Sequence record: ON862890.1
Source of the DNA: Escherichia phage A221
Length of the DNA: 64,000 nucleotides
Reading direction: 5' to 3' (one strand)
Shown here: positions 8,628 to 56,041 of the stretch, in pieces
How the letters are laid out: each line of letters starts with the position of its first letter
Numbering within the stretch: the first letter of the stretch is position 1
Notes under the pieces: generated by a model
Told to the model about the DNA's origin: nothing
Seen by the model: the letters and a program-made list of their open reading frames with translations, nothing else
Database searches by the model: none
Made by a program: the position numbers and the translations under genes

Positions 8628-8700
8628 AGTTCACATAGGGCGGCAACACACCGCCGAATGAAAAGTGAAACGCACCAACTACATTATGAGGAATTACATC

Positions 8701-9189
8701 ATGGCTACTACCAAAACTCTGATCACCAACGGCACCATCTCTTTCGAACTGAACACCGAAGTTGCTAAAGTTGAAATGTTCCGCATCGCTCAGGCGGCTG
8801 GCTTCACTGGTGGCAAAACTTCCTTCATGAACCTGCTGAACGGTAAAGTGAAATCGACTAACGGCTTCACCCTGGTAGAGCAGGTTGTGGTTGACAAAGC
8901 TGTGGTTGCTAAGACTGCTGACAAAGTTGGTATGCTGAAAAACCTGGGTCACGACATCCACATTGTCGAAGCAAGCACCGAAACTTACGGCACCATCGTA
9001 GTCGGTAAAGGTCGCATCCAGCTGAACCCGCTGAACAACGGTTCCTTCTCTGTGATGGTCTTCCCTAAGAAGGGGTATGACAACACCGACATCGTGAAAG
9101 CTGTTGGCGGCGAAGCAAAAGCTCAGTACGTCAAAATGGGTAAACTGAGCACCGACGCAGTTGAAGCTCTGGTGAGCAAACTGGCCTAA
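8701..9189 (+). CDS. hypothetical highly expressed protein (163 aa)
   Basis: RBS GAGG with GGAATTACATCATG start context; very strong optimal-codon bias; hairpin downstream; tool start 8665 is GTG. Confidence 0.55.
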   Translation: MATTKTLITNGTISFELNTEVAKVEMFRIAQAAGFTGGKTSFMNLLNGKVKSTNGFTLVEQVVVDKAVVAKTADKVGMLKNLGHDIHIVEASTETYGTIVVGKGRIQLNPLNNGSFSVMVFPKKGYDNTDIVKAVGGEAKAQYVKMGKLSTDAVEALVSKLA

Positions 9190-43761: not shown

Positions 43762-44730
43762 TTAGAAGCTATCGCCTTCGGTTTCAAAGCGCCCTTTATG
43801 CAGAGGCTCCAGTTCGATGAAGGTCATGTCAACCTGCGTGGACACGATACCATCATCTTTGTGAACCGCGTATGAACTGTCCGGCGTCTCGTTGACGAAC
43901 ATGTTGGAAAGTACACAAGTGGAGATGCGGTGCAGCCACTGGTTACGCTCCCCATTGACCATGAACGTAATGTCGAATGTTGAAGGATGCAAGTAAAACG
44001 CGCTGGAATTCTTGTTGTACTTGTACTCTGGGTACATATGCATCTTGAACATGCGGATGATCTCACGGACCATCTTGGCTTCCTTCTGAGATCGCGGCGT
44101 GAATTTGAATGTAAATGGAATCTCACGGTTGCGAACACCCTGGAAGATCATCTCCACATATGGGTTGGTCATGGTGCCTGTGAACAACTCAAGGGTGTCA
44201 TGGGCGTTAATGCTCGGCAGGAATGGAATAGCCTCCGACGCAGATTGGATAGCCTTGGTGGCAGCGAATCGCCCCATCTCCTTCCCGACGTTGAGCGCAT
44301 CACCCAGTTTAAACTGAGTCATGTCTTGGGCGGCGCGGGAAAGGAACTGTGCCCCCATACCAGCCAACCCCAGCTCGCTACCGTTCCAGCCAACACCATA
44401 GTTGGTTGTAATGGACTCGGGCATACAAAGTACGATAGACTCGTTTGAACGAACGTGACGCGCCCATGCATATTTGGTGATGGAACCAGACTTGGACCCA
44501 TAGACCACAGGAGTATTCCCCAGAGGGTTCTGTATTGGGTTCTCGATAGTCTGAGTAGCCGTGTTGCCATAAGATGAACCGGAGATACGGTTGATGTTGA
44601 ATAGGACATAGTGTCCTAAAGTCTTACCCCCAGTGACGTCTAGGGGATAAGACAATTGCTTCTGAGCCTGGGACAATCCCTTCGTGTTCAGAACCTTGAT
44701 CTTATCGATTGTCTTCTTGAAGTCGGCCAT
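43762..44730 (-). CDS. putative baseplate-tail tube junction protein (gp48/gp54-like)
   Basis: 322 aa first gene of tail module; synteny and size. Confidence 0.35.
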   Translation of the reverse strand: MADFKKTIDKIKVLNTKGLSQAQKQLSYPLDVTGGKTLGHYVLFNINRISGSSYGNTATQTIENPIQNPLGNTPVVYGSKSGSITKYAWARHVRSNESIVLCMPESITTNYGVGWNGSELGLAGMGAQFLSRAAQDMTQFKLGDALNVGKEMGRFAATKAIQSASEAIPFLPSINAHDTLELFTGTMTNPYVEMIFQGVRNREIPFTFKFTPRSQKEAKMVREIIRMFKMHMYPEYKYNKNSSAFYLHPSTFDITFMVNGERNQWLHRISTCVLSNMFVNETPDSSYAVHKDDGIVSTQVDMTFIELEPLHKGRFETEGDSF

Positions 44731-44780
44731 GGTCTCAGCCCTTAAATAGATAGAGTGTTATGGCTATTTAGGACTAGATT

Positions 44781-45395
44781 ATGAGCAACTATCTTCAGGG
44801 GAAGTACACCCCAGTTAATCCCAAGAAGTATCAGGGGAATGTGAATAACATCATCTTCCGCTCTTCGCTGGAGTTGGTGGCTTTCAAGTTCTGTGATATG
44901 AACTCCGCGATAGTGAAGTGGTCTAGTGAGGAGACTGTTATCCCTTACATTTCCCCAGTCGACGGGCGCACCCATCGTTACTTCATGGACCTCAAGGTCT
45001 GGACGCGCCGTGAAGGGCAAGAGGAACTACAGGTCACCCTCATTGAGATCAAGCCCAAAGACCAGATCAAGCAGCCGAAGAAGACTCCGAACATGAAGGA
45101 GTCGACATTCAACAATGCGATGCGAACCTGGTTGGTCAACTCTGCCAAGTGGGAGGCCACCCGCGAACTGTGTGCCAAGAAGAACTGGAAGTTCATTATA
45201 TGGACCGAAGAGCATCTTGTTCCGGGTGAAGATCCGGATGTTCGTAAACAGTTTGAGCTGAAGTCGAAAAAGAAACGGGATATGGAGATGCAAGATCGCC
45301 GACATGCCGAACGTGTCAGGGTGCTGAAGGAACAGATGCGGAAGGAGATTAAACCCGCCCCAACGGAGCGGGATGATGGACTGCTCTTACCTTAA
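44781..45395 (+). CDS. hypothetical protein with possible PD-(D/E)xK nuclease motif
   Basis: FMDLKVW ... LIEIKPK resembles D...E-x-K core; 204 aa. Confidence 0.3.
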   Translation: MSNYLQGKYTPVNPKKYQGNVNNIIFRSSLELVAFKFCDMNSAIVKWSSEETVIPYISPVDGRTHRYFMDLKVWTRREGQEELQVTLIEIKPKDQIKQPKKTPNMKESTFNNAMRTWLVNSAKWEATRELCAKKNWKFIIWTEEHLVPGEDPDVRKQFELKSKKKRDMEMQDRRHAERVRVLKEQMRKEIKPAPTERDDGLLLP

Positions 45396-45604
45396 CTTCT
45401 CTTGTGGCCAGGGGCGTAACAGGTATGCCTGTCGCGCCCAATTTGCCAGCCGTCTGCTCGCGCCTGTTTGACACACTCACCCCAAGTCTCACCAGTGTAT
45501 TGTTTGAACCCGCACTTGGGGTGATGCTCTTCCCAAGCCCAACTGCATGCCTTGCAATCTGAGCATTCACAATAAAGATCGATGGTGTAACCTGAAATGA
45601 TCAT
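45392..45604 (-). CDS. small cysteine-rich protein
   Basis: CECSDCKAC...C...C pattern; 70 aa. Confidence 0.4.
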   Translation of the reverse strand: MIISGYTIDLYCECSDCKACSWAWEEHHPKCGFKQYTGETWGECVKQARADGWQIGRDRHTCYAPGHKRS

Positions 45605-45606
45605 GA

Positions 45607-46014
45607 TCAGTCTTCTAGGTGATCGTAGATCTTCTGGCGGAACGCATTACCACCAGCACAACCCTTGGCCAGCAGGTGGGTGCCGCCCGTACCGATCACG
45701 CTGATTGTTGAGAAGCCCAGGATGCGACCTGTGATGGACTGATCAACCTTCACTGTCTCCACCTTACCAATGCGCAACTCATCAGCATCACGACGGATGA
45801 AACCACGTTTGACGATGACGCGCTTGTTAGTCACAGCGAATTCAGTTGTCAATACATTTAAAATTGTTGGTATCAGAAATAACAAGCTGAATCCAAATGT
45901 TGGGATAAACGTTAAAATAACCAGAACGTAAATCCAAAAACCGCTCCACCAAGTCGGGCGGGTGAAGGCAATAACGTGCTCGTCTTTGCCGAGCATACGA
46001 TCTACATAACGCAT
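45607..46014 (-). CDS. membrane protein with bacterial PH-like domain
   Basis: Two N-terminal TM helices followed by YdbS/YdbT-like segment. Confidence 0.4.
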   Translation of the reverse strand: MRYVDRMLGKDEHVIAFTRPTWWSGFWIYVLVILTFIPTFGFSLLFLIPTILNVLTTEFAVTNKRVIVKRGFIRRDADELRIGKVETVKVDQSITGRILGFSTISVIGTGGTHLLAKGCAGGNAFRQKIYDHLED

Positions 46015-46024
46015 GATAAATTCC

Positions 46025-46534
46025 TTATTTGTCAGGGTTCACTAAAACAGGGGTGGATACCAGTTCGCCGCTCTTCACAGAATGCTGGACTACAACAATC
46101 TGATCGACCATGCGATATACTTCAATCCCAGCAGCCAGCATTTCAATAATGCCGTCTATGATACGATATGGTCGGTCATAGAACACTTTAGCGATCTTGC
46201 CACTGTCGATAATACGACGGGTGCACTCTGGGCATGGACTATGAGTGACAAACATCACCAGGCCACAACAGTCTTCAGTGTGCTGGGGGAGTTTGCTCAG
46301 AGCATTCTCCTCGGCGTGGATAACACCCACCGATACCAGTTGACCGTCTACTTCCTTCTCACAGACATTAGGAGCGCCAGGAGCAGTCCCGTTCCAACCG
46401 ATAGACAGGGGCTGGTCAACACGCGGGTCAACGATAACACAGCCGACCTTCAGGCGCTGGGCATAGCTGGACAGAGCGTATGCATGAGCCGAGCGCATAT
46501 GCGCAAATAACATACGGGGTTTGATAGCCATCAC
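46025..46534 (-). CDS. cd: dCMP deaminase
   Basis: Zinc-binding motifs HAEENA and SPCPECTRRI match T4 Cd HAELNA / SPCPDCAKAI. Confidence 0.85.
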   Translation of the reverse strand: MMAIKPRMLFAHMRSAHAYALSSYAQRLKVGCVIVDPRVDQPLSIGWNGTAPGAPNVCEKEVDGQLVSVGVIHAEENALSKLPQHTEDCCGLVMFVTHSPCPECTRRIIDSGKIAKVFYDRPYRIIDGIIEMLAAGIEVYRMVDQIVVVQHSVKSGELVSTPVLVNPDK

Positions 46535-46845
46535 ATCACCAGTTTCTTTTCAAGGAGGAAGATCATGTCGTCTTGGTCTGCACGACCAAAGATCTGACCC
46601 ATGGCGACCATCTGGTGGACTTCCCTGACAATGATTTCTTTGCCAGGAGTAACTTCATCCAGGTCCATGATAGTGCTGACGCGGTCTACCATGCGCGGCG
46701 GGTGATTAATGTAGCGCTGCAGGTACTTCTCACGAGTGGCGATCAAAGTGTTCAGCTCGGACAGTTCTGTCTCTTCTTCTGAGAAGCGCTTTTCCTTCGC
46801 CTGTAGTTCAGCCAGACGCTCATACATTTCTTTTAATGGGGTCAT
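46531..46845 (-). CDS. hypothetical protein
   Basis: 104 aa, coiled-coil-like N-terminus; 4-nt overlap with downstream gene. Confidence 0.4.
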   Translation of the reverse strand: MTPLKEMYERLAELQAKEKRFSEEETELSELNTLIATREKYLQRYINHPPRMVDRVSTIMDLDEVTPGKEIIVREVHQMVAMGQIFGRADQDDMIFLLEKKLVM

Positions 46846-46914
46846 TTCCGGTTCCTCTTAATAAACGAAGGGAAGTATATACTCCCCCTTCTTCAATAAC
46901 CGCTGAATCTTTAT

Positions 46915-47253
46915 TCAGAGATAAGATTTACCGAGTTCGGTCAGGCGATAGAACGTCACCTCAGTGTTCGGCCAGTTCACGTAAGAACCGTCATGAACCA
47001 TTGAGCCAGCTGGTTCGATCAACCCCTTGGCGAGCAGGGAAGCCCCTGTGCGGGTGTCCCATGGGTCGCCTTTGACGGAGGTGAAACCACCAGCGTTCGG
47101 GCATACCTGGAACGTCCAGACGGTGTTGCCCTTGTCATTGGTCCAGGATTTGGGATGCAAGTACCATTGACCATAACGGTAATGACCTTTCTCAAAGTTC
47201 TCTATCCCGTAGAGAACCGAGAGTTGGTGTCCTGTGATGCGCGGCTTTTTCAT
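46915..47253 (-). CDS. hypothetical protein
   Basis: Internal ATG (MKKPRITGH) chosen; tool start 47304 upstream in-frame. Confidence 0.35.
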   Translation of the reverse strand: MKKPRITGHQLSVLYGIENFEKGHYRYGQWYLHPKSWTNDKGNTVWTFQVCPNAGGFTSVKGDPWDTRTGASLLAKGLIEPAGSMVHDGSYVNWPNTEVTFYRLTELGKSYL

Positions 47254-47567
47254 GACAATACTCCTTTCAGAGCCAAAACGGAAAGCACACCAATAATCAA
47301 CCATGTCGGGATAATCGGCTTGCAGTTCATGTGGGTTTCTCCACCTTCGATGTTCGGACTTCCTTGTATAAGAACGTGTTTACAGGAAGCTCTGAACGTC
47401 ATTACACAGCCCATCAACACAATCGGCCTGATATAATAACCCGTTTTAGTTTGCTTCACGATACATGGAGAGGAGAAGCGCAGATATGGATCCCCTTTCC
47501 GGTAGCCTGTGATTGTGACCTTCTGCACTTCAGAAGGCACTTTTTGGCCAGGAAAATAAATTTTCAT
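47250..47567 (-). CDS. hypothetical protein with C-terminal hydrophobic helix
   Basis: 105 aa; overlaps neighbours by 4 nt. Confidence 0.4.
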   Translation of the reverse strand: MKIYFPGQKVPSEVQKVTITGYRKGDPYLRFSSPCIVKQTKTGYYIRPIVLMGCVMTFRASCKHVLIQGSPNIEGGETHMNCKPIIPTWLIIGVLSVLALKGVLS

Positions 47568-48124
47568 ATTTCAATCCCCAGATTGGTGTATAACAACTCA
47601 GACAGGGTTACAGGGCGCTTGAATTGTTCCCAACTACAGTTCAGGTATTCACGTTCTTCACGCATTTCACTGTGAAGATGACCATGGATATTATACGCCC
47701 AGCGGTCTAATTGATAAGGAACGTGAGTGGTCAGCACACGACCAACCGGAGTATCACGCTCATACATCGCACCAAAGGAGCTAATCTATCCCTCTTGATA
47801 TAGCTTCATCAACATCTTGAAGCTGTCATGGTTGCCTTGCGCCACCCTGATGATAAAGTTCGGTCGCCAGTCATCGGGAACCGGGCGGCGCTTGAACTCA
47901 TCAATATTCCGCTTGGCACCCTCGCGCATCAGGCGAATGAACCCCTCAGCCCCGATGAAGCAGATGTCGCCTGCAAGTTCAAGGACGTCTCGTGACTTCA
48001 GCCCCTGAAAGATACTGTCGATAACTGCAGCATCATGCGCCTCTTGGGTATCGAACCCACGGGGCTTGAAGATCTTCTTGTGCCCAAGGTGGGTGTCTCC
48101 CAGATACTTCACAATTCCTGCCAT
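47564..48124 (-). CDS. calcineurin-like metallophosphoesterase interrupted by one in-frame TAG (47786-47788)
   Basis: Motifs GDTHLG, GDICFIG, GNHD upstream of TAG and HGHLH downstream, all in the same frame; RBS GAGGAG before ATG 48124. Confidence 0.55.
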
Positions 48125-48465
48125 TATGGTCTCCTCAACCATTCTAAAATCGGTACGTTCACAAACCCTTTATGCCAGCGATGTGGTTTATGGCCTCTGT
48201 TGTGTTCGAGCAAACACGTATCCGGTGGGACACTGAAGTGGATGCCTTCGATGTCGTAGTAATGCCCATCAATCAGAGTATACACATGACCTTCGGTCTG
48301 ACTGTAATGGATCTCTGCTTGAGGGTACACGTGCTTCAACAACAGAGCGACCTGGTAACACTTCCCGTTCTTCCCCACGTACTCGACATCCACCTGTTGT
48401 GGAAACACATCTTTGACAAAGTTTATCAATCTCGTGATGTCATTTACAACAACCGAACGTTTCAT
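48124..48465 (-). CDS. hypothetical protein
   Basis: ATG with RBS GGAGAGG; stop overlaps next start (TAATG). Confidence 0.4.
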
Positions 48466-48529
48466 ATCGCCTCTCCCGAGGATTCGTTGGTGAACCAATG
48501 ATACTCTATACCGGATATAGAAAAGCCCC

Positions 48530-48832
48530 TCACGGGGCTTGATCGTCTTCATCAGGGAATATACGCCATCGACCTATTCCATACCACTCACCGATAGAGT
48601 TCCATGTCCTTTCCCCAGGCCAGCCGCCGACCGTGTAGTAATGCGCTACCAGCCGCCAGTAAGGAAGAGAGGCCATGTTCACGCCGCCGTCGGCCTTTAG
48701 GCAGGCCAAGTACCAATTCGTGAGACTGAACGCCTGAAATAACGGATGAAGGAACATGAAGTATAGGTAGCCCAATATGGCTGCGAACACCCCAGCTGTT
48801 ACGATCACACCGATGACAGTGAATACAATCAT
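48530..48832 (-). CDS. small membrane protein
   Basis: Two hydrophobic helices; 100 aa. Confidence 0.4.
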   Translation of the reverse strand: MIVFTVIGVIVTAGVFAAILGYLYFMFLHPLFQAFSLTNWYLACLKADGGVNMASLPYWRLVAHYYTVGGWPGERTWNSIGEWYGIGRWRIFPDEDDQAP

Positions 48833-49461
48833 CCCACAACCTCCAGCCCCATCAGATCTTCCATGGTCTTCTGAATACGCAGCCAGTCAAGCGCAGCGTC
48901 ATAACGAGGGTCGTGATAGATCATACCTTCCAGTTCCCATGCCTTGATGCCAGCGTAGCGATCCTGTTGACCAACACCCTTCAGCCAGCTCACGATGTCG
49001 AAGGTGTGGTGGTAATCCCAAGGCTCGTTGGAGTCCTGCTTACATGTCACCTCAATGATGTGCTGAGCCTTGCGCAGATCGAACAAGTTACGGTCACACC
49101 AGTCAACCGAGCGCGGGTCTACCCCAAGACGATGACAACCCTTGCGGATTTCATCGGCCAGCTGGAAGATAGAGATGTCCTGCTCAGTCGGGTACAGACT
49201 GACGGCGCGAGCCGCATCACACGGGTTACGTTTACCCGTCCCCAACCACCATTCTACCGTCCCCTGGTCCTTCACGCGACCGAGTTCGAGCTGCTCTTTG
49301 ACATTCAGCTTAATGAACGTCGTGCGCTCCTCAACCAGCTGCTGAAGAGTATAACGCTTGGTCAGGTCGGCGATGGTGTGTGCCCAAGACAGCATGACTG
49401 CATCATCCCAGCGCCCCAGGGTTTCGCTGTCGGCAACTGCAAGGAAATTAGACTTGTACAT
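48829..49461 (-). CDS. dexA: exonuclease A (DexA-like DEDD 3'-5' exonuclease)
   Basis: Exo I motif AVADSETLG; TVEWW and YHDPRYDAA match T4 DexA TIEWW and AHDSIHDCA. Confidence 0.75.
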   Translation of the reverse strand: MYKSNFLAVADSETLGRWDDAVMLSWAHTIADLTKRYTLQQLVEERTTFIKLNVKEQLELGRVKDQGTVEWWLGTGKRNPCDAARAVSLYPTEQDISIFQLADEIRKGCHRLGVDPRSVDWCDRNLFDLRKAQHIIEVTCKQDSNEPWDYHHTFDIVSWLKGVGQQDRYAGIKAWELEGMIYHDPRYDAALDWLRIQKTMEDLMGLEVVG

Positions 49462-50076
49462 TTACGCCTCCTCGTCGATGATTTCTTGCTCATCTTCGAC
49501 AATCATGATACCTTCTGTGTCCAGATGAGAAAGTTCCATCAGATCATCATCGAATCCGTCTCCTTCCCTGATATAGAAGACTGGGACGACACGACGGCGG
49601 GTCTCTTCATACACGCTTTCAGAGATTCGATTGATATGGCGCACTACACTGTAGAGGTTCAGGCCACCAATGCCACAGCCGATAGCAGGCAGGCCGACAT
49701 AGACAGTTTCGTCTTTAGTTGCTTCCACAATTTCATGCACCTGCTCAAACAGGGTCTGAACAGAACTGATGACTGACGGCATTCGAGCGTTCGGACCTGG
49801 ATAAAACTGAGTGTAGAGGTTCGCGCCCCAAACGCCCTTGCTGTGGTCAAATGCATAGGACATACCACCCAGGCGTTGCTCTGGACCACGAGGGTCGTTC
49901 GCATCGACTTCACGCAGGGCTGGGAAGTTGTTACCGATGTGCAGAGCAATGCCCGCGCCCATGGTAGACCAACAGTTGGCACCGTGGGCAAAGATGTCGA
50001 TCAGATTGAAGCTACAGGCGGCTTTCAGTAGATCGCCACCATTGATTACATATGTGGTCATGCGTACTGTCTCCAT
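49462..50076 (-). CDS. macro domain protein (ADP-ribose binding/processing)
   Basis: GGDLLKAACSFNLIDIFAHGANCWSTMGAGIA fits macro-domain G(D)...VNAAN...GGGV pattern; acidic C-terminal tail. Confidence 0.6.
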   Translation of the reverse strand: METVRMTTYVINGGDLLKAACSFNLIDIFAHGANCWSTMGAGIALHIGNNFPALREVDANDPRGPEQRLGGMSYAFDHSKGVWGANLYTQFYPGPNARMPSVISSVQTLFEQVHEIVEATKDETVYVGLPAIGCGIGGLNLYSVVRHINRISESVYEETRRRVVPVFYIREGDGFDDDLMELSHLDTEGIMIVEDEQEIIDEEA

Positions 50077-50300
50077 TCAATAATGCTGTTGTCAACACAT
50101 GACACCTGGATGATGCCTGTGTGGTGGTGATAATCAGTCATCTGCATGATAAAGTTGTTCCCATTGCGGATAATGGTGTTGACAACGATACCCTTGGCAG
50201 CAAGGCGTATTACAATGGCAGTGCAAAGGCGGTCCATGTAACCGGACACAGAACCTGGTTCGAAGCATCGCTCGAACAGATTTTCAAATTCTGGGCTCAT
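50058..50300 (-). CDS. hypothetical protein
   Basis: 80-aa ORF overlapping macro gene start. Confidence 0.35.
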   Translation of the reverse strand: MSPEFENLFERCFEPGSVSGYMDRLCTAIVIRLAAKGIVVNTIIRNGNNFIMQMTDYHHHTGIIQVSCVDNSIIEWRQYA

Positions 50301-50350
50301 TTGATGTTACCAAACAAGGGGTCGAGGCGGTAATAATACCGCCTTTTTCT

Positions 50351-50761
50351 TCAATAGAGGTCTTCGGAAAAGAGTTCGCGGAAAGGGGTTGTCTTCAGGC
50401 GCACCTGATTGATCTGTCCAGCTTCACGGGCTACGATGCATGCCTCTTCACGAGTGAGGAAGTTGCCCTGGTTGTCGATGAATCCCTGTTCGCGGGTATG
50501 GGTGGATTTAATGACGCCTGCCTCTTTCAGGATCTTGAGCTGACTGTTCATGAATTTGCTATGGTGACGGTCGGCAACGACGATTACATCACCATATTTG
50601 TTGGCGGCAGCGACCACACGGCGCTCCCAGGCACCTTCGGCAGGAAGTTCACGAGTGTACAATGGAATCATCGTATCACCGATGTCATCCCCCTTCACCT
50701 GTGAGAACAACTTGCCTTCAGTTCCCGTTGGGAGTTCACGAAAATATCCCAGTAATTTCAT
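50351..50761 (-). CDS. hypothetical protein
   Basis: 136 aa; no recognisable motif. Confidence 0.4.
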   Translation of the reverse strand: MKLLGYFRELPTGTEGKLFSQVKGDDIGDTMIPLYTRELPAEGAWERRVVAAANKYGDVIVVADRHHSKFMNSQLKILKEAGVIKSTHTREQGFIDNQGNFLTREEACIVAREAGQINQVRLKTTPFRELFSEDLY

Positions 50762-50764
50762 AAT

Positions 50765-51043
50765 CTATTCAATCCAAATTTCAGGTTCAGAGATGTCGGC
50801 CATATCCACTGTCTGGTTCTTCAGATCATGGAAACAGTCGCCGAGGAATTGTATTTTGCCGTCGGTCAGGAACAGATGGCAAAATAATGCTGGATCGGTT
50901 GCATTCACCAGCAGGCTCGGTGTGAACGTAGGCTCAATAACATTGTTGTTCCACATCCACATCGGACCTTGGGCTTCGCCCTTAATGCGATATAGATGAA
51001 GTATACCACACCCAGGACAATGAAAATACAAGGAATCATCCAT
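50765..51043 (-). CDS. small Cys/His-rich (zinc-binding-like) protein
   Basis: CPGCG ... CHLF ... DCFH pattern; 92 aa. Confidence 0.4.
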   Translation of the reverse strand: MDDSLYFHCPGCGILHLYRIKGEAQGPMWMWNNNVIEPTFTPSLLVNATDPALFCHLFLTDGKIQFLGDCFHDLKNQTVDMADISEPEIWIE

Positions 51044-51078
51044 AGGCAGAAGTTTAGGACTCAGAAGCTATGTTACGA

Positions 51079-51366
51079 TCAACCGTCTACAGTGGCTTCA
51101 GGAACGTAGGGGCGCAGTTCACCAACTAGTTTCGGAAAGAGTGCAATCCCGAACAGGTTGAAAGAACGCATGGTGCCGACCATTGCAACATCTTCCCCTT
51201 CCTCGATATCTTTCAGGGCGCACATTGGGTAATATTCATCGACCTCTGGGTCTTCCGTCTCACCATAGAGACCAAACGCTACCTCTTCTTTGATAAAGCG
51301 AGGAACCAGGAAATCAAATAGGAAAATGATGAATACCATAGGTGCTGCAGAACGGAGATAGAACAT
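51079..51366 (-). CDS. small membrane protein
   Basis: N-terminal hydrophobic helix; 95 aa. Confidence 0.4.
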   Translation of the reverse strand: MFYLRSAAPMVFIIFLFDFLVPRFIKEEVAFGLYGETEDPEVDEYYPMCALKDIEEGEDVAMVGTMRSFNLFGIALFPKLVGELRPYVPEATVDG

Positions 51367-51407
51367 AGCACAACCCTCCAGGTGAGGAGGGGCGAACCCC
51401 TCCGATG

Positions 51408-52739
51408 TTATAGGCCAAGAGCCTTTTCAAGGTCATCAAGGTCTTCAGTGTAAAGATCGATGTCCTCTTTCTTACTTAATTCCTTATATTGTGCTTCAAG
51501 GTTCTCAATCTGCTTGAGTAGGCACTCACGGGCGTCCAGAGTAATAGACGACAGAGGCATCTTGAACAACTCGTCAAGATCACCACCAAAGTCCGGGTAG
51601 TCCTGCATGAACAGAGACTTCAGCACGTCAATCTTTTGGCGGAGATCAACACGCGTCGCCCATTCAATGAACACCGCCCGGTCACCCAGCTTGCGGATCC
51701 TGTCTGCCATGTCCTTCAACAGATACTGGCGACGGTCTTCGTACCGTGACAGGCGATAATTGAAGAACGGCAGCAACATGTCCCGCCAACCAGAATAACG
51801 ATGAATAACACCGTCTTCATCCCACGCTGTCCAAACAGGCTTGGTGGCTGAATACAGCTTGAACATCTGCTCAACCTGCTCGTCACTCAGCTTAGAGAGT
51901 TCGCCGCGCTTAAACACAACCGTGATATCCCAGCCATCTTCGGTCGTGTCGTTGGCGTACTCGGTGAGGATACCTGCCTTGTACAGAGGCAGCAACACCT
52001 TGGTCTCATAGGTTTTGGCAAACCAGCCCACTGGGACTTCGGTGATATGCAGGGTCGTGGCATTGACCCGACGGAAGATACCACGACTGTATGCTCTTCC
52101 TTCCTCAGTATAGCCTGTCTCTCCTTTGAAGCCGTTCCAGTACGGTTTTAAGTCTTTCGGGTCTTCGCCACGGAGAAGCGCTCTCAGGGCACTGAGCACG
52201 GACTTAACGCAATGACACGGGGTGTCGGTGGAATATCCGGTGCCGATACCATTGATCCCATTCACCAGGAACATGGGTAGGATGGGCAGAAAGAACTTCG
52301 GCTCCAGCCTTTCTTCACCAAGGTAGTTGTATTCCAAGATACCCTCATCCTCCTTGCGGAAGATCTTACGGATAACGTCAGATACAGCGACGGATATGTA
52401 TCGGGCAGATGAAGCATCACGCCCCATGATAGAACCAAACTGGCCATCGCGGTCAAAGTACGGGATGTTGTTCGTGCCTGGGAACCCCTGAGCCATGTTC
52501 ACGATAGTGCCGCTCATGTTCTCACCACCAGACTTGTAGTTGGTCCGGGCGGCGGCGAACATACCAAGGCGGTCAACAATCTCCTCCTTGTTGTACTCAA
52601 GAGCAGCGAAAAGGATCTTGCGCTGGCTTGGCTTGAGGCTGTCAATCAGCTGAGGGATTTGACGGATGCTGTTGACCACAGAAAACTGTTTATGGTCAGT
52701 GTTGACAAAGTCCGTTACAGTAATGCTCTTAGCAACCAT
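51408..52739 (-). CDS. 52: DNA topoisomerase II medium subunit (gp52, GyrA-like)
   Basis: SLKPSQRKILFAA motif; ATG at 52739 with RBS GAGG gives 443 aa vs T4 gp52 442 aa. Confidence 0.85.
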   Translation of the reverse strand: MVAKSITVTDFVNTDHKQFSVVNSIRQIPQLIDSLKPSQRKILFAALEYNKEEIVDRLGMFAAARTNYKSGGENMSGTIVNMAQGFPGTNNIPYFDRDGQFGSIMGRDASSARYISVAVSDVIRKIFRKEDEGILEYNYLGEERLEPKFFLPILPMFLVNGINGIGTGYSTDTPCHCVKSVLSALRALLRGEDPKDLKPYWNGFKGETGYTEEGRAYSRGIFRRVNATTLHITEVPVGWFAKTYETKVLLPLYKAGILTEYANDTTEDGWDITVVFKRGELSKLSDEQVEQMFKLYSATKPVWTAWDEDGVIHRYSGWRDMLLPFFNYRLSRYEDRRQYLLKDMADRIRKLGDRAVFIEWATRVDLRQKIDVLKSLFMQDYPDFGGDLDELFKMPLSSITLDARECLLKQIENLEAQYKELSKKEDIDLYTEDLDDLEKALGL

Positions 52740-52740
52740 C

Positions 52741-54639
52741 TTATTCATCCTCAGTTTCAAATAGGCAAACATCGCTAAACCAGGTTTTGCGGTAATCGGC
52801 GGCCTCATCACCGAAGCCATTCTTCAGTGACTGTTGATAGCCATCGTCCAGCGTGACCGTCGTAGTATACGCATCCAGGTTGTTTAGAATACGTTTGAAG
52901 TCTTCAGTGCTGTTACCGCCAAGACCTTTCAGATATTTCTTCTTCGTGATCTTCTTGGCATCAGGTGTCTTCAGGAACTCCTCATACTCTGCGTTGTTCA
53001 TGAACTCATACATCACCTTACCACACCACACACGCATGTAAGGGGTGCGCAGGAGCTTCAGTCTGCCCTGACGGACGTACTCCGGCCAGTAGGTGCAATA
53101 CAGGGTGATCAACAACCCACGGATGTGGATGCCGTCATCGTCCGCATCGGTAGCCACAACAGTCTGTGGGTAACGGGTGATATCAAGGGGCTGGCCTGGC
53201 ACTGCGCCGCCATGGATCGTACACAGGTTCTTGAACTCTTCATTGTTCATCACCTTTGAGCGCGGGGCGTTCAGGCAGTTGATGAACTTACCACGAAGCG
53301 GGAACAACCCGATCTTCTTGGTGTCGCGGGCGTTCAGGATAGGATTGGAGGCACTATCACCCTCTGTCAGCAACAGGGAGCATCCGCTGCGGTCACCACG
53401 GGCGGTCGCCGGGTAATACTTCTCAATCTCACGATAATCCCGCTTGCTGATGTCCTTCTTGGCCTTTTCAAACTCAGCATCGTCCTGCTCATTGCGCAGG
53501 GAAGCCAGTTCTTTGCTCAGACCAGCCGTAACGAACTCAAGCGCCTTGCGGATCAGTTTATCACTGGGCTTGTACGACGTACCGAACTGGCTGACAGGAG
53601 TGGTCATGCGCTCCTTGGTCTGGCTGTCAAAGCGCGGGTTGTTGATGTCGGCGGCGATGAACAAGGACATGTGGTTCTTGATCATTGCTGGCTTCAGTTC
53701 GGTCTTGAACTTCTTCACCAGCTGGGGACGAATCGCTGCCACGATCTGGTCAGCAACATAATCAACGTGAGGACCACCGATGTGGGTGGCAATAGAGTTC
53801 ACGTATGATGCGTGCATGAACGTACCGGATGAAGGGGCTACAGCAACAGACCAATCCCCGGTTTCGTCAACAGCCGAACCAGCATGGAAGTAATCAACGA
53901 AGTGGCCAAAGCGGTCAATCCGGATTTGCTTCCCATTGAGAACAATCTTCAGGCGCGGGTTACACGCAGCCACTTCAAACGCGCGGCGATAGATCATCAG
54001 CAGGTTGTTCTGGTCAAGTCCTTTGACGCCCAGACGAGCATAGTCAGGGATCCAGGCGATGGATGTGCCGGGACTGTTCACGTTGCTGATGACTGGGTTA
54101 GATTTCTTGCTCATGTTGTCTTCAAACGTCTGAGTATAAGACTTCTTGCCGTCATTAGTCGTGACGCGGAACCATTTGGAGAACACGTTGACGAGGGACG
54201 CCCCTTCGCCATTCTGACCACCGGACTTCTGGTTGTTGTACTCTTCGTCTTCGTCGTTGAAGTTCGATCCCGCAAACAATTCTGAAAATAACATTTCTGG
54301 CAACCACATACCAGATTCATGCTTGACCACAGGGATACCCCCGTTGTCAGCAACGATGATTTGACCGTTCATCGGGGAAACTGTGACGGTGATTTCCGTC
54401 AGGGATTTACCCTCAGGGGTCTTGCTGTGGTCAACACAGTTGGTGATGATTTCATCAAACTGTTTGATAAGAGCGGGGTTATATTCAAAATTGTCTTTAA
54501 ACACAACTTTGTCTTTGCTGAGATCATATACCCAAGCCATCCCGACAGAAGAACGGATACTCCCTAGATGGCGCTCTGGGCGAAGGAGTATATGCTCGAT
54601 GTGTGAGAGCTTTTTGTATTTTCTGTTTACATCAACCAT
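52741..54639 (-). CDS. 39: DNA topoisomerase II large subunit (gp39 with gp60 portion fused; GyrB-like ATPase + TOPRIM)
   Basis: GHKL motif ITNCVDH, TOPRIM LLLTEGDSA; 632 aa single ORF; RBS GGAG. Confidence 0.85.
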   Translation of the reverse strand: MVDVNRKYKKLSHIEHILLRPERHLGSIRSSVGMAWVYDLSKDKVVFKDNFEYNPALIKQFDEIITNCVDHSKTPEGKSLTEITVTVSPMNGQIIVADNGGIPVVKHESGMWLPEMLFSELFAGSNFNDEDEEYNNQKSGGQNGEGASLVNVFSKWFRVTTNDGKKSYTQTFEDNMSKKSNPVISNVNSPGTSIAWIPDYARLGVKGLDQNNLLMIYRRAFEVAACNPRLKIVLNGKQIRIDRFGHFVDYFHAGSAVDETGDWSVAVAPSSGTFMHASYVNSIATHIGGPHVDYVADQIVAAIRPQLVKKFKTELKPAMIKNHMSLFIAADINNPRFDSQTKERMTTPVSQFGTSYKPSDKLIRKALEFVTAGLSKELASLRNEQDDAEFEKAKKDISKRDYREIEKYYPATARGDRSGCSLLLTEGDSASNPILNARDTKKIGLFPLRGKFINCLNAPRSKVMNNEEFKNLCTIHGGAVPGQPLDITRYPQTVVATDADDDGIHIRGLLITLYCTYWPEYVRQGRLKLLRTPYMRVWCGKVMYEFMNNAEYEEFLKTPDAKKITKKKYLKGLGGNSTEDFKRILNNLDAYTTTVTLDDGYQQSLKNGFGDEAADYRKTWFSDVCLFETEDE

Positions 54640-55463
54640 TATTATCTCCGTAAAATTTCAACCAGGCGGGATCTTCTTTTGGTATCCAACCTTTCTGAAA
54701 TTTAGATATACAAGTTTGAGCTGTGGCCTTAGAACAAACAGAGCTTAACCCGGTTTCTTTCAACATTAAACAATAACGGTTCTTCACTTTGTCTTCACCG
54801 TTACTATACCACCATTCAAAGAATTCACCAGCCAAGAGCCATTGTCGGGATTTACCCGTCTTTACGACAGTCGGGTGTTCCCCAAGGTTGTATGTTATTC
54901 ATGGGATTGTTCTGGCGCCACATAGCAGAATACCTCTCCCTTTCTTCTGGTCGCCTCATCCGTTCGGTGACTGATTTGGTAAGATTGGCTTTGTGTGCTT
55001 CGGAGTGTGGTATCCCTTTCCTGGATTTTGACAACCTGCGCCTTGATTCGTCATTCCAAGTGTAACCTCTCAAGCTATCCGCACGTTTCTTCTGTACTTC
55101 TGGGTTCAATGAGTTTTTCTTGGATTGCTTACGACAACGTTCCTTTTGTTCATCAGATGACATCACTTCTTTCATTCTGGTGGAATTATTTCTCCTCAAT
55201 TCCCCAAACTCTTTGTTGTTCCTAGACATGTTGTTCATCCCAGTCCATGCCTTCCTGATACCGGGGTTGAGTGGTTTTGTTCTCCAAAGTAGGTGATGTA
55301 CGACATAATGTTCTTCTGGTGTCAACCATACAAGATTAGAGAAGTGGTTAGTGCCACCCAAGCACACAGGGATTATATGGTGGCGTTCTTGATAAACGCC
55401 ATCCATTTTACCTCTCTGTATTGCTCTCTGTATGAGAGCGTCTAAGATGATTTCGTATTTCAT
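54632..55463 (-). pseudogene. HNH homing endonuclease disrupted by frameshift near 54850-54857
   Basis: N-terminal ORF has HNH motif HHIIPVCLGGTNHFSNLVWLTPEEH; C-terminal ORF in +1 frame is homologous to C-terminus of intact paralog 38500-39195; total length not a multiple of 3. Confidence 0.6.
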
Positions 55464-56041
55464 AAGCCAAATTTGCTACGCCACTTTTCAACCTTGTGTT
55501 CAATAGCGTGCTCCACTTTAATGCGAGTGGCCATCAAAGAGGATCCACGGATCGCCCCTTCCCCACACCCCATGCGCGCAACATGCTTGATTAGGTCATT
55601 GACAAGATGATCCAATCTGTCTTGACTGCGATAAGGCTGGTTGCACAATCGGATAATCCGGCCATGATAATGATGAATAAGATTCAGATGCTTTTGAGGA
55701 TCACGATCAATCAGACGGAACCAGTCTTCTTCCAACAGATTAGAAGAAATATCGTTCACTGTCGCCATGTGGTTGATGACAGAGTCGATCATTTCGGCCT
55801 TGTTCAGAGAGCCGCGCATTTGGACGTCGTCATAATCCATGACGTACAGAAGGTCAATAGCAGAGATAATGACATCAGCAACTTCGCCATTCAACGGCTC
55901 GGAAGATACTATGCCATGAAACACATCAGACAGTTCACAGATCTCTTCACCTAGTTTGTTCAGAACAAACACAGGCGAACGGTCTGGGGTATGAGCAGTG
56001 CAGTCATAAGAAGCGTCGACGATAGTGTGTAGAAATTTCAT
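55460..56041 (-). CDS. hypothetical protein, possible MazG-like nucleotide pyrophosphohydrolase
   Basis: LGEEICELSDV ... GEVADVIISAIDLL resembles MazG EExxE/ExxD helices; weak. Confidence 0.35.
   Translation of the reverse strand: MKFLHTIVDASYDCTAHTPDRSPVFVLNKLGEEICELSDVFHGIVSSEPLNGEVADVIISAIDLLYVMDYDDVQMRGSLNKAEMIDSVINHMATVNDISSNLLEEDWFRLIDRDPQKHLNLIHHYHGRIIRLCNQPYRSQDRLDHLVNDLIKHVARMGCGEGAIRGSSLMATRIKVEHAIEHKVEKWRSKFGL

Follow-up and report, generated by a model that had tools for sequence, protein, structure and literature searches.

The stretch of Escherichia phage A221 DNA considered here (sequence record ON862890.1; 64,000 nucleotides (nt), hereafter the window, in whose numbering all coordinates are given) carries at positions 45392-51366 a block of small genes that all lie on the minus strand. 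This block had been described, from the sequence alone, as an island of about 14 early genes that could be an anti-defence or host-takeover module. The island is there, as tightly packed and as rich in overlaps as was claimed, and it comprises 15 protein genes, represented by 16 open reading frames (ORFs) since a stop codon in frame cuts one of them in two. We consider it probable that the block is a conserved accessory region of the Ackermannviridae and that it is a mosaic rather than one functional module. The parts of this mosaic would be DNA-precursor enzymes, namely a dCMP (deoxycytidine monophosphate) deaminase and a DexA-like exonuclease; a macrodomain protein of the Tk.4/AdfM type, whose most likely action is to bind thymidine that has been ADP-ribosylated in phage DNA and to neutralise the damage done by DarT2; one stand-alone protein of the BubE family that is decaying in the A221 lineage; and about nine small conserved proteins without an assigned function, three of them with membrane segments. 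Among all of these it is only the macrodomain gene that has a homologue with a documented role in counter-defence.

The ORFs of the block are real genes under purifying selection, because every product matches a PHROG family (expectation value E<=1e-15) and the ratios of nonsynonymous to synonymous substitution (dN/dS), measured against Shigella phage Ag3, are low. They range from 0.02 to 0.21 for 12 of the 14 genes present in Ag3, the two higher values being those of the protein of 100 amino acids (aa) with a membrane helix (0.35) and of the DUF6527 protein (0.45). Several of the genes had been called ORFans, a description that does not survive, as all of them fall into conserved phage families, including Arn.3-like, YunG-like and DUF7234 proteins that had been overlooked. 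Overlaps of 1-4 nt occur at seven of the 15 junctions (14 within the block, plus that with the topoisomerase gene). Gaps of 35-69 nt number only four within the block, and non-coding sequence amounts to about 233 nt in total, the block being some 96% coding. Start codons were corrected for four genes from family profiles and the annotations of relatives. The 129-aa ORF of the 112-aa protein, for example, begins too early, relatives annotating a coding sequence (CDS) of 339 bp, and in the long ORF of the YunG-like protein the Pfam match spans residues 42-139 and phrog_4814 aligns from residue 30. A plus-strand ORF of 287 aa (48913-49776), antisense to the DexA-like and macrodomain genes, matches no family and was rejected as spurious. 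A compositional island was rejected as well, the GC content of the block (0.46-0.55) being the same as that of its flanks.

Almost every ViI-like (Ackermannviridae) phage has the same block beside its topoisomerase genes. The closest match to its DNA is Escherichia phage YX22 (97.8% identity), the block is 97.0-97.7% identical in PC3, PH4, RPN242, LHE287, fGh-Ecl02, ZQ1 and vB_CECAV_050, and AV101 shows 96.3% identity across 95% of it. Megablast matched the block to 231 phage records and blastn to 305, of which 185 cover at least 80% of the region, and those matching records that have a taxonomy line belong to the Ackermannviridae, subfamily Aglimvirinae. As judged from these comparisons, A221 is an Agtrevirus-like member of the Ackermannviridae (a ViI-like phage). 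A tblastn matrix revealed a shared gene order, with local differences, in Agtrevirus Ag3, Kuttervirus CBA120 and Taipeivirus May and Magnus, so that order is kept across three genera at 60-98% protein identity. The outer genes, which encode the 70-aa protein, the bPH_2 protein, the dCMP deaminase, the 104-aa protein and the 95-aa membrane protein, are retained in all genera compared. Identity in Limestonevirus is 94% for the 70-aa protein (dN/dS 0.05), 95% for the 104-aa protein (dN/dS 0.10) and 86% for the 95-aa membrane protein, and the bPH_2 protein is 77-93% identical in other genera. Further inside the block, the DUF7234 protein is 71% identical to its Ag3 counterpart.

The block has nevertheless been altered in several lineages. 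In Limestonevirus, Dickeya phage XF4 is collinear with 45292-47094 and 50906-51506 of A221 and is without 47095-50905. This loss is a single clean 3.8-kb deletion, which has its breakpoints inside the 112-aa gene (47094/47095) and the DUF6527 gene and its junction at 8698-8704 of the XF4 segment compared, and which left a fusion ORF, entered as a gene in the annotation of LIMEstone1. It follows that the central ten genes are ancestral and yet, because Limestonevirus lacks 47095-50905, dispensable in at least one genus. Elsewhere, CBA120 has four extra genes in the block, one of them QueC-like and three of the four at hairpin-containing junctions; Magnus is without the phosphoesterase, YunG-like and DUF7618 genes; the YunG-like gene is absent in Taipeivirus and Limestonevirus; and DUF7618 occupies a variable slot, being absent from Ag3 (where a different gene takes its place), May, Magnus and XF4. 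The most divergent gene of the block is that of the 100-aa membrane protein, which is 39% identical to Ag3 between flanking genes of 91-98% identity, and 38-45% identical between genera. Such divergence suggests allele replacement or swap, diversifying pressure or a fast-evolving host-interaction gene. As in a plastic region, gene content varies between related genomes and the flanks are fixed. The coordinates of the genes and of the hairpins associated with them are given in Table 1.

Table 1. Genes and hairpins of the minus-strand block of phage A221, with the matches on which each assignment is based.
Feature	Position	Strand	Evidence
70-aa protein, 7 Cys	45392-45604	-	phrog_926 E=5.6e-26
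bPH_2 membrane protein, YdbS/YdbT-like	45607-46014	-	Pfam bPH_2 E=1.9e-12; phrog_3707 'membrane-flanked domain' E=9e-75
dCMP deaminase, T4 Cd-like	46025-46531	-	Pfam dCMP_cyt_deam_1 (PF00383) E=4.3e-16; phrog_174 E=9e-53
104-aa protein	46531-46845	-	phrog_4059 E=2.7e-53
112-aa protein	46915-47253	-	phrog_4677, residues 18-128 of 129-aa ORF
DUF7618 protein	47250-47567	-	Pfam DUF7618 E=2.3e-49
Calcineurin-type metallophosphoesterase with in-frame TAG at 47786-47788	47564-48124	-	phrog_547
YunG-like phage protein, 113 aa	48124-48465	-	Pfam Phage_YunG-like E=2e-42; phrog_4814
100-aa protein, N-terminal membrane helix	48530-48832	-	phrog_2531 E=2e-24
DexA-like DEDDh 3'-5' exonuclease	48829-49461	-	phrog_255 E=4.6e-53
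Tk.4/AdfM-like macrodomain protein	49462-50061	-	T4 Tk.4 BLASTP E=1e-15
DUF7234 protein, 80 aa	50058-50300	-	Pfam DUF7234 E=4.8e-41
Arn.3-like protein, 136 aa	50351-50761	-	T4 Arn.3 E=3e-20
BubE/DUF6527 protein, 92 aa	50765-51043	-	Pfam PF20137 E=1.1e-11
95-aa protein, N-terminal membrane helix	51079-51366	-	phrog_2241 E=4e-35
Terminator-like hairpin closing the block, inside gp4 3' end	45354-45372	-	8-bp stem, 7 GC pairs, then TTTAAT
Hairpin between 112-aa and 104-aa genes	46868-46889	-	Region z=-2.7; Magnus terminator at same junction
Hairpin and U-run after 100-aa gene	48523-48540	-	Region z=-2.1; May and Magnus terminators at same junction
Terminator-like hairpin, Arn.3-like/DUF7234 gap	50324-50345	.	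-19.5 kcal/mol, z=-4.2; Magnus terminator at same junction
GC-rich hairpin before the block, topoisomerase junction	51386-51403		

The location given in the original prediction, between the tail module and topoisomerase II, is correct on one side. On the right the block does adjoin topoisomerase II, the genes of the medium and then the large subunit following on the same strand, and the 95-aa membrane-protein gene is the first after that of the medium subunit. The left neighbour, however, is the plus-strand head-completion gene gp4 (44781-45395), and baseplate genes occur only beyond it. The 70-aa gene is the last of the block and its stop codon overlaps that of the convergent gp4. The product of gp4, the head-completion protein, has a Pfam match (E=1.1e-17) to the N-terminal domain of TnsA-like endonucleases. 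Genes for an HNH homing endonuclease (54852-55463) and a MazG-like pyrophosphatase (55460-56041) lie on the minus strand directly upstream of the topoisomerase II large subunit, and those for histone-like, Hoc-like, rIIB and rIIA proteins are farther upstream on the same strand. A long leftward run of genes, which includes rIIA, rIIB, the MazG-like gene and the genes of the large and medium topoisomerase II subunits, has the block at its downstream end.

Within this run the block is made up of five translationally coupled groups parted by GC-rich hairpins. These hairpins are found in four gaps (51367-51407, 50301-50350, 48466-48529 and 46846-46914); the gap at 51044-51078 folds no better than shuffled sequence. 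Three of the four gap hairpins are more stable than their shuffled versions (z-scores in Table 1), and one of the four has a UUCG loop. The hairpin that closes the block lies at a place equal to that of an annotated rho-independent terminator of Ag3, and it folds no better than its shuffled counterparts (z=-1.5). A role as terminators may be proposed for the hairpins, in keeping with the annotation of relatives. No Rfam family was matched at gathering thresholds in 44500-55500, and the T4 late motif TATAAATA has two matches in the 64-kb window, none near the block and not above chance. Promoters upstream probably drive the genes of the block by read-through, either before replication or while it is under way.

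The block had also been likened to the hyperplastic early region of T4-like genomes, and some synteny speaks for that likeness. In the T4 regions around genes 39 and 52 (dexA, dda, mod; motA, arn.1-arn.4, asiA), as in A221, small genes are packed on one strand by topoisomerase II and gene content varies between related phages, of which the 3.8-kb deletion is an instance. Homologues of arn.3 and dexA are present in the block, the former being three genes from gene 52 in T4 and the latter downstream of gene 39, and rIIA and rIIB are upstream. The two systems differ in that T4 cd and tk.4 sit elsewhere in the T4 genome and in that most of the A221 block is stable across three genera. They differ also in regulation. 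The Ackermannviridae have no recognisable early or middle promoters and no homologues of MotA, AsiA, Alt or Mod, the authors of the CBA120 study having stated that early promoters were not identifiable and that the family is without MotA, AsiA, Alt and ModA (PMC3184105). The word early in the original prediction is for this block not an observation; early or delayed-early expression by read-through is what we infer from homology to T4 pre-replicative genes.

The dCMP deaminase and the DexA-like protein are homologous to T4 Cd and DexA, and their catalytic motifs are conserved. In the deaminase both zinc motifs are intact, HAEENA containing HAE and SPCPEC containing PCxxC. The DexA-like protein aligns with T4 DexA over its full length (BLASTP E=4e-10, 217 columns), with D-x-E and H-x4-D motifs in register (DSE with DFE, HDPRYD with HDSIHD); its sole Pfam match is a sub-threshold one to Rv2179c-like, and the dN/dS of its gene is 0.02. 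dCMP deaminase yields deoxyuridine monophosphate (dUMP), and DexA recycles DNA into nucleotides. The simplest view of the pair is that they are ordinary precursor-supply enzymes, with dUMP supply and DNA recycling as their roles. From what has been reported of these phages (PMC3184105, PMC5889632), the dUMP probably feeds a 5-hydroxymethyl-dU pathway by way of dUMP hydroxymethylase and not thymidylate synthase.

Of the smaller proteins, the Arn.3-like one shares 39% identity with T4 Arn.3 over 97 aa, including the C-terminal SEDLY, and has a conserved core of about 90 aa that ends in LFSEDLY. The bPH_2 protein has a hydrophobic stretch, probably two membrane helices, before its PH domain, and the other small block proteins gave no informative match. 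Structural searches had been recommended for the supposed ORFans. Two proteins were modelled, the Arn.3-like one (predicted local distance difference test score, pLDDT, 84) and the DUF6527 protein, and neither model has a solved relative. Foldseek did recover the Arn.3 fold in other phage proteins and in several entries named 'large polyvalent protein' from uncultured phages (BFVD, E=5e-4 to 4e-3), a faint hint that this fold may be tied to conflict-related proteins.

The macrodomain protein is 33% identical to T4 Tk.4 over 115 aa, and 13 invariant columns are shared in the alignment. Its best model is that of the antitoxin DarG both in NCBIfam (E=2.5e-8) and in PADLOC (E=2.6e-7). When a family profile of 20 sequences, T4 Tk.4 among them, was compared with the PDB, DarG macrodomains again came first (5m31, 2.4e-17; 5m3i, 6e-17), followed by TARG1 (3e-13); the solved DarG relatives best matched are the macrodomains of Thermus aquaticus and Mycobacterium tuberculosis. 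Pfam Macro alone reaches 16.4 bits, under its 22-bit cut-off, and the fold is assigned here by sequence profile only. On this basis the protein is placed in the DarG/TARG1 clade. The Asn that binds ADP-ribose and the glycine loop are kept (N34 corresponding to N22, and GIGG to G119-G121 of DarG), and Thr89 aligns with T79 of DarG. The resemblance does not extend to full-length DarG, as the C-terminal DarT-binding domain is missing (only positions 6-135 of the 338-position DarG model are covered, with 33.6 vs 250 bits). No DarT-like gene was found in the block, either in the ORF list or by PADLOC.

The nearest well-studied relative is T4 Tk.4 itself. The motifs HGxNC, NLYTQ and PxIGxGIGG are invariant in both proteins, and each is a lone macrodomain among small phage genes, with no DarT partner. 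The A221 copy differs in being about 45 residues longer, the Ackermannviridae macrodomains having a C-terminal tail, acidic and about 50 aa long, that is absent in T4, and in its setting, since it lies beside the dexA homologue, which it abuts without a gap, whereas the T4 gene is beside tk. Transposon sequencing of T4 singled out tk.4 as the one gene that the phage needs on a DarTG2 host, and T4 with a clean knockout of this gene, which was named adfM, became sensitive to DarTG2 (bioRxiv 10.1101/2025.11.20.689424). An AdfM of an unrelated lineage, from the chimallivirus PhiKZ, clears DNA of ADP-ribose in vitro and gives protection from DarTG2 (2026 paper, PMC13309987). It is probable, from the Asn, Thr and glycine loop that are kept, that the Tk.4 family binds ADP-ribosylated DNA, and the A221 protein is a candidate anti-DarT2 factor. 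Repair of nucleic-acid damage inflicted by defences, which had been suggested for the macrodomain, DexA and phosphoesterase together, can be retained for the macrodomain only, on the strength of its Tk.4 homologue and its DarG-clade profiles, and for this one gene the proposal of a DarTG challenge was well aimed. About 40% of the thymidines are hypermodified in ViI-like DNA (PMC5889632); because the other 60% or so is ordinary thymidine, DarT2 would keep targets in it.

How such a protein might act is less easily seen. DarG (PDB 5M31, 5M3E, 5M3I) and PhiKZ AdfM belong to the same macrodomain clade and have residues aligned with Asn34, Thr89 and the Gly-rich loop, but their catalytic lysine (K80 in TaqDarG, K78 in PhiKZ AdfM, with K84 as the equivalent in TARG1) is replaced here by Gln90. 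This residue is part of the NLYTQ motif, which is invariant across the Tk.4 family including T4, and it aligns with the K of FPTKKHW. The substitution K80A abolishes DarG activity. A lysine mechanism of the DarG type was excluded because Gln90 stands where DarG and PhiKZ AdfM have their essential lysine, and the mechanism of the T4-type AdfM, by the same alignment, differs from the published one.

The metallophosphoesterase gene is interrupted by the amber codon, which replaces Trp113 (TGG in LHE287) and separates metal-binding motifs I-III from IV-V. The two fragments match the PHROG family 'phosphoesterase' with E=1e-24 and 2e-15, as compared with 6.7e-43 for the intact LHE287 copy. The gene is intact in six of six relatives (LHE287, YX22, PC3, RPN242, Ag3 and CBA120), a 186-aa CDS being annotated in the last five, and Trp113 is invariant across three genera, even in Taipeivirus May, whose protein is 55% identical. 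The five calcineurin-type motifs (GDTH, GD, GNHD, H134 and HGHLH) are invariant in five homologues. Because the dN/dS of the gene apart from the stop is only 0.05, the nonsense mutation, private to A221, would be very recent, if it is not a sequencing error. Recoding of the stop codon was considered and rejected, as a search for an amber-suppressor tRNA showed the window to contain no tRNA at all and TAG ends the DUF6527 gene as an ordinary stop. The protein is too divergent for sequence searches of Pfam or the PDB: no Pfam Metallophos match was found at E<=0.1, a PDB search with the single sequence and with a profile was without a match, and NCBIfam gave a weak match to PdeM (E=9.5e-4, 18.6 vs 150 bits).

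The DUF6527 protein passes the gathering score of its Pfam family (44.9 vs 23.6 bits). DUF6527 is BubE, described in two 2024 preprints (including bioRxiv 10.1101/2024.11.21.623953) as a serine protease of weak activity that has a zinc site and a Ser-His dyad and that frees targets from the ubiquitin-like protein BubA; an antiphage role of the Bub (6E) operons is suspected there and not proven. The AlphaFold model of the A221 protein is a small beta-sandwich (pLDDT 78), for which a structure search found no solved relative and a PDB sequence search was also empty, which is as the authors report for BubE. A comparison of 21 phage-type homologues left only eight columns invariant, S43 and H56 among them, and C9, C12, C55 and C70 are at least 90% conserved. 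S43 and H56 may be the counterparts of the dyad S92/H102 of Citrobacter BubE, and the four Cys those of its C4 zinc site. The spacing of the cysteines is different (CxxC...C...C here, and CxCxC...C, or C57/C59/C61/C99, in BubE). The A221 protein is also without the long hydrophobic extension, and no gene for E1, E2 or Ubl (a protein resembling ubiquitin) lies nearby in A221 or in the other phages checked.

Phage-type copies of this gene stand alone. In A221 its neighbours are the Arn.3-like gene and a membrane-protein gene, in metagenomic phage contigs it is found amid small ORFs, and a genome scan (phage-type copies only) located stand-alone copies in 328 bacterial genome loci. In three prophages (of Pseudomonas, of Acinetobacter and on a contig labelled Gordonia) it lies between endolysin and Rz spanin genes, and in a Mu-like prophage on a Klebsiella plasmid between lysis genes and terL. 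A tblastn search of plasmids for a Bub-operon BubE gave only prophage copies and one isolated Deinococcus gene. In the A221 lineage the gene is on its way to being lost. Homologues have 103 aa, and the 92-aa form of A221 misses the first 11 residues of this ancestral form, as the start codon has changed from ATG to ATA and codon 3 is TAG in A221 and its four closest relatives. A221 alone of these five genomes still has an open frame, of 92 aa, which starts at an internal ATG; the frame is broken by a 1-nt deletion in LHE287, YX22 and PC3 and by a 1-nt insertion in RPN242, and in these four relatives the gene is a pseudogene. It could be imagined that stand-alone BubE-family proteins are orphan Ubl deconjugases that strip Bub-type conjugates in counter-defence, a proposal that we put forward as a long shot. 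Their carriers are Ackermannviridae, Mu-like phages and many prophages, all without an E1, E2 or Ubl partner. The parallel would be the orphan DarG-like and NADAR antitoxin enzymes that phages carry against DarT.

Three other ways of understanding the block have to be set against the mosaic proposed here. It is possible to see it as a support cluster for nucleotide metabolism or DNA modification, in which the macrodomain would be an ADP-ribose-1''-phosphate or nucleotide phosphatase and the phosphoesterase a nucleotidase. The dCMP deaminase, DexA, the upstream MazG-like gene and the QueC-like insertion in Kuttervirus all fit this theme, as does the hypermodification of ViI-like thymidine, and databases do call Tk.4 an 'A1pp phosphatase'. 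The five ViI genes that are sufficient for the modification (gp67, gp160, gp226, gp243 and gp247) are, however, located elsewhere (PMC5889632), Limestonevirus lives without DexA, macrodomain and phosphoesterase, and most genes carry no metabolic signature. The macrodomain, moreover, groups with the DNA-de-ADP-ribosylating DarG, Poa1p-type phosphatases scoring lower. On balance a metabolic cluster is unlikely.

The original prediction of a dedicated anti-defence or host-takeover island, in which macrodomain, DexA and phosphoesterase would jointly degrade the signalling nucleotides of CBASS, Thoeris or Pycsar or repair defence damage, we find rather improbable. The trio comes apart: the phosphoesterase is absent in Magnus and in XF4, and in A221 it is inactivated by the stop codon; CBA120 has another gene between those for the macrodomain and DexA; and T4 tk.4 and dexA are about 52 kb apart. 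It is true that the macrodomain and DexA genes are adjacent in A221, are found together in Ag3, CBA120, May and Magnus and have both gone from XF4, that the macrodomain is kin to anti-DarTG2 factors, and that the central genes are dispensable in Limestonevirus, all of which would suit such an island, together with the presence of a BubE-family gene and the Arn.3 fold of phage polyvalent proteins. Yet there is no link between signalling nucleotides and either DexA or the phosphoesterase, and both DexA and the dCMP deaminase have well-known housekeeping roles. PADLOC, applied to ten island proteins, matched the macrodomain only (DarG), NCBIfam on ten block proteins gave nothing beyond DarG and the weak PdeM match, and no known anti-CBASS, anti-Thoeris or anti-Pycsar family was recognised by Pfam, PHROGs or NCBIfam. 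That the block might be mostly decaying, selfish or neutral filler, made up of pseudogenes on their way out, is very improbable, and the analysis of selection goes most of the way to refuting it. In its favour are a nonsense mutation, the loss of a start codon, frameshifts in relatives and the deletion in one genus; these are set against strong constraint on 12 of 14 genes, an order kept in three genera, and an amber-carrying gene that is itself constrained and whose lesion is very recent.

The interpretation as a conserved accessory mosaic, which we prefer, has its own difficulties. Most genes of the block are without an assigned function, so a common purpose is possible, and the retention of most of the block across three genera under strong purifying selection fits an 'optional' set of genes less well. 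The predicted activity of the macrodomain rests on the genetics of T4 Tk.4, a protein only 33% identical to it, and the presence of Gln90 in place of the essential lysine also speaks against that prediction. With regard to expression, sigma-70-like sites in 44500-55500 number 8 where 12.0 +/- 3.7 are expected, with none in a minus-strand intergenic gap, and a literature search for a transcriptome of Ackermannviridae or Kuttervirus found none.

The block has already been sequenced in more than 200 published genomes and is an ordinary accessory region of a well-known phage family. What is newly read in it is a credible member of the AdfM-type anti-DarT family and, more speculatively, the lead offered by the orphan BubE. 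ViI-like phages see wide use as biocontrol agents against Salmonella, E. coli O157, Shigella and Dickeya. A predicted anti-DarTG2 factor of the AdfM type in these phages would help to explain their host range, and one has to ask how macrodomains of the T4/Ackermannviridae subfamily work, with Gln in place of Lys in the active site. The Limestonevirus deletion, the private nonsense mutation and the pseudogenised copies mark genes that are expendable, which is useful for phage engineering. Stand-alone phage homologues of BubE are candidates for action against ubiquitin-like defence and, if they did prove to be orphan deconjugases, would be the first case of a phage countering a bacterial pathway that resembles ubiquitination.

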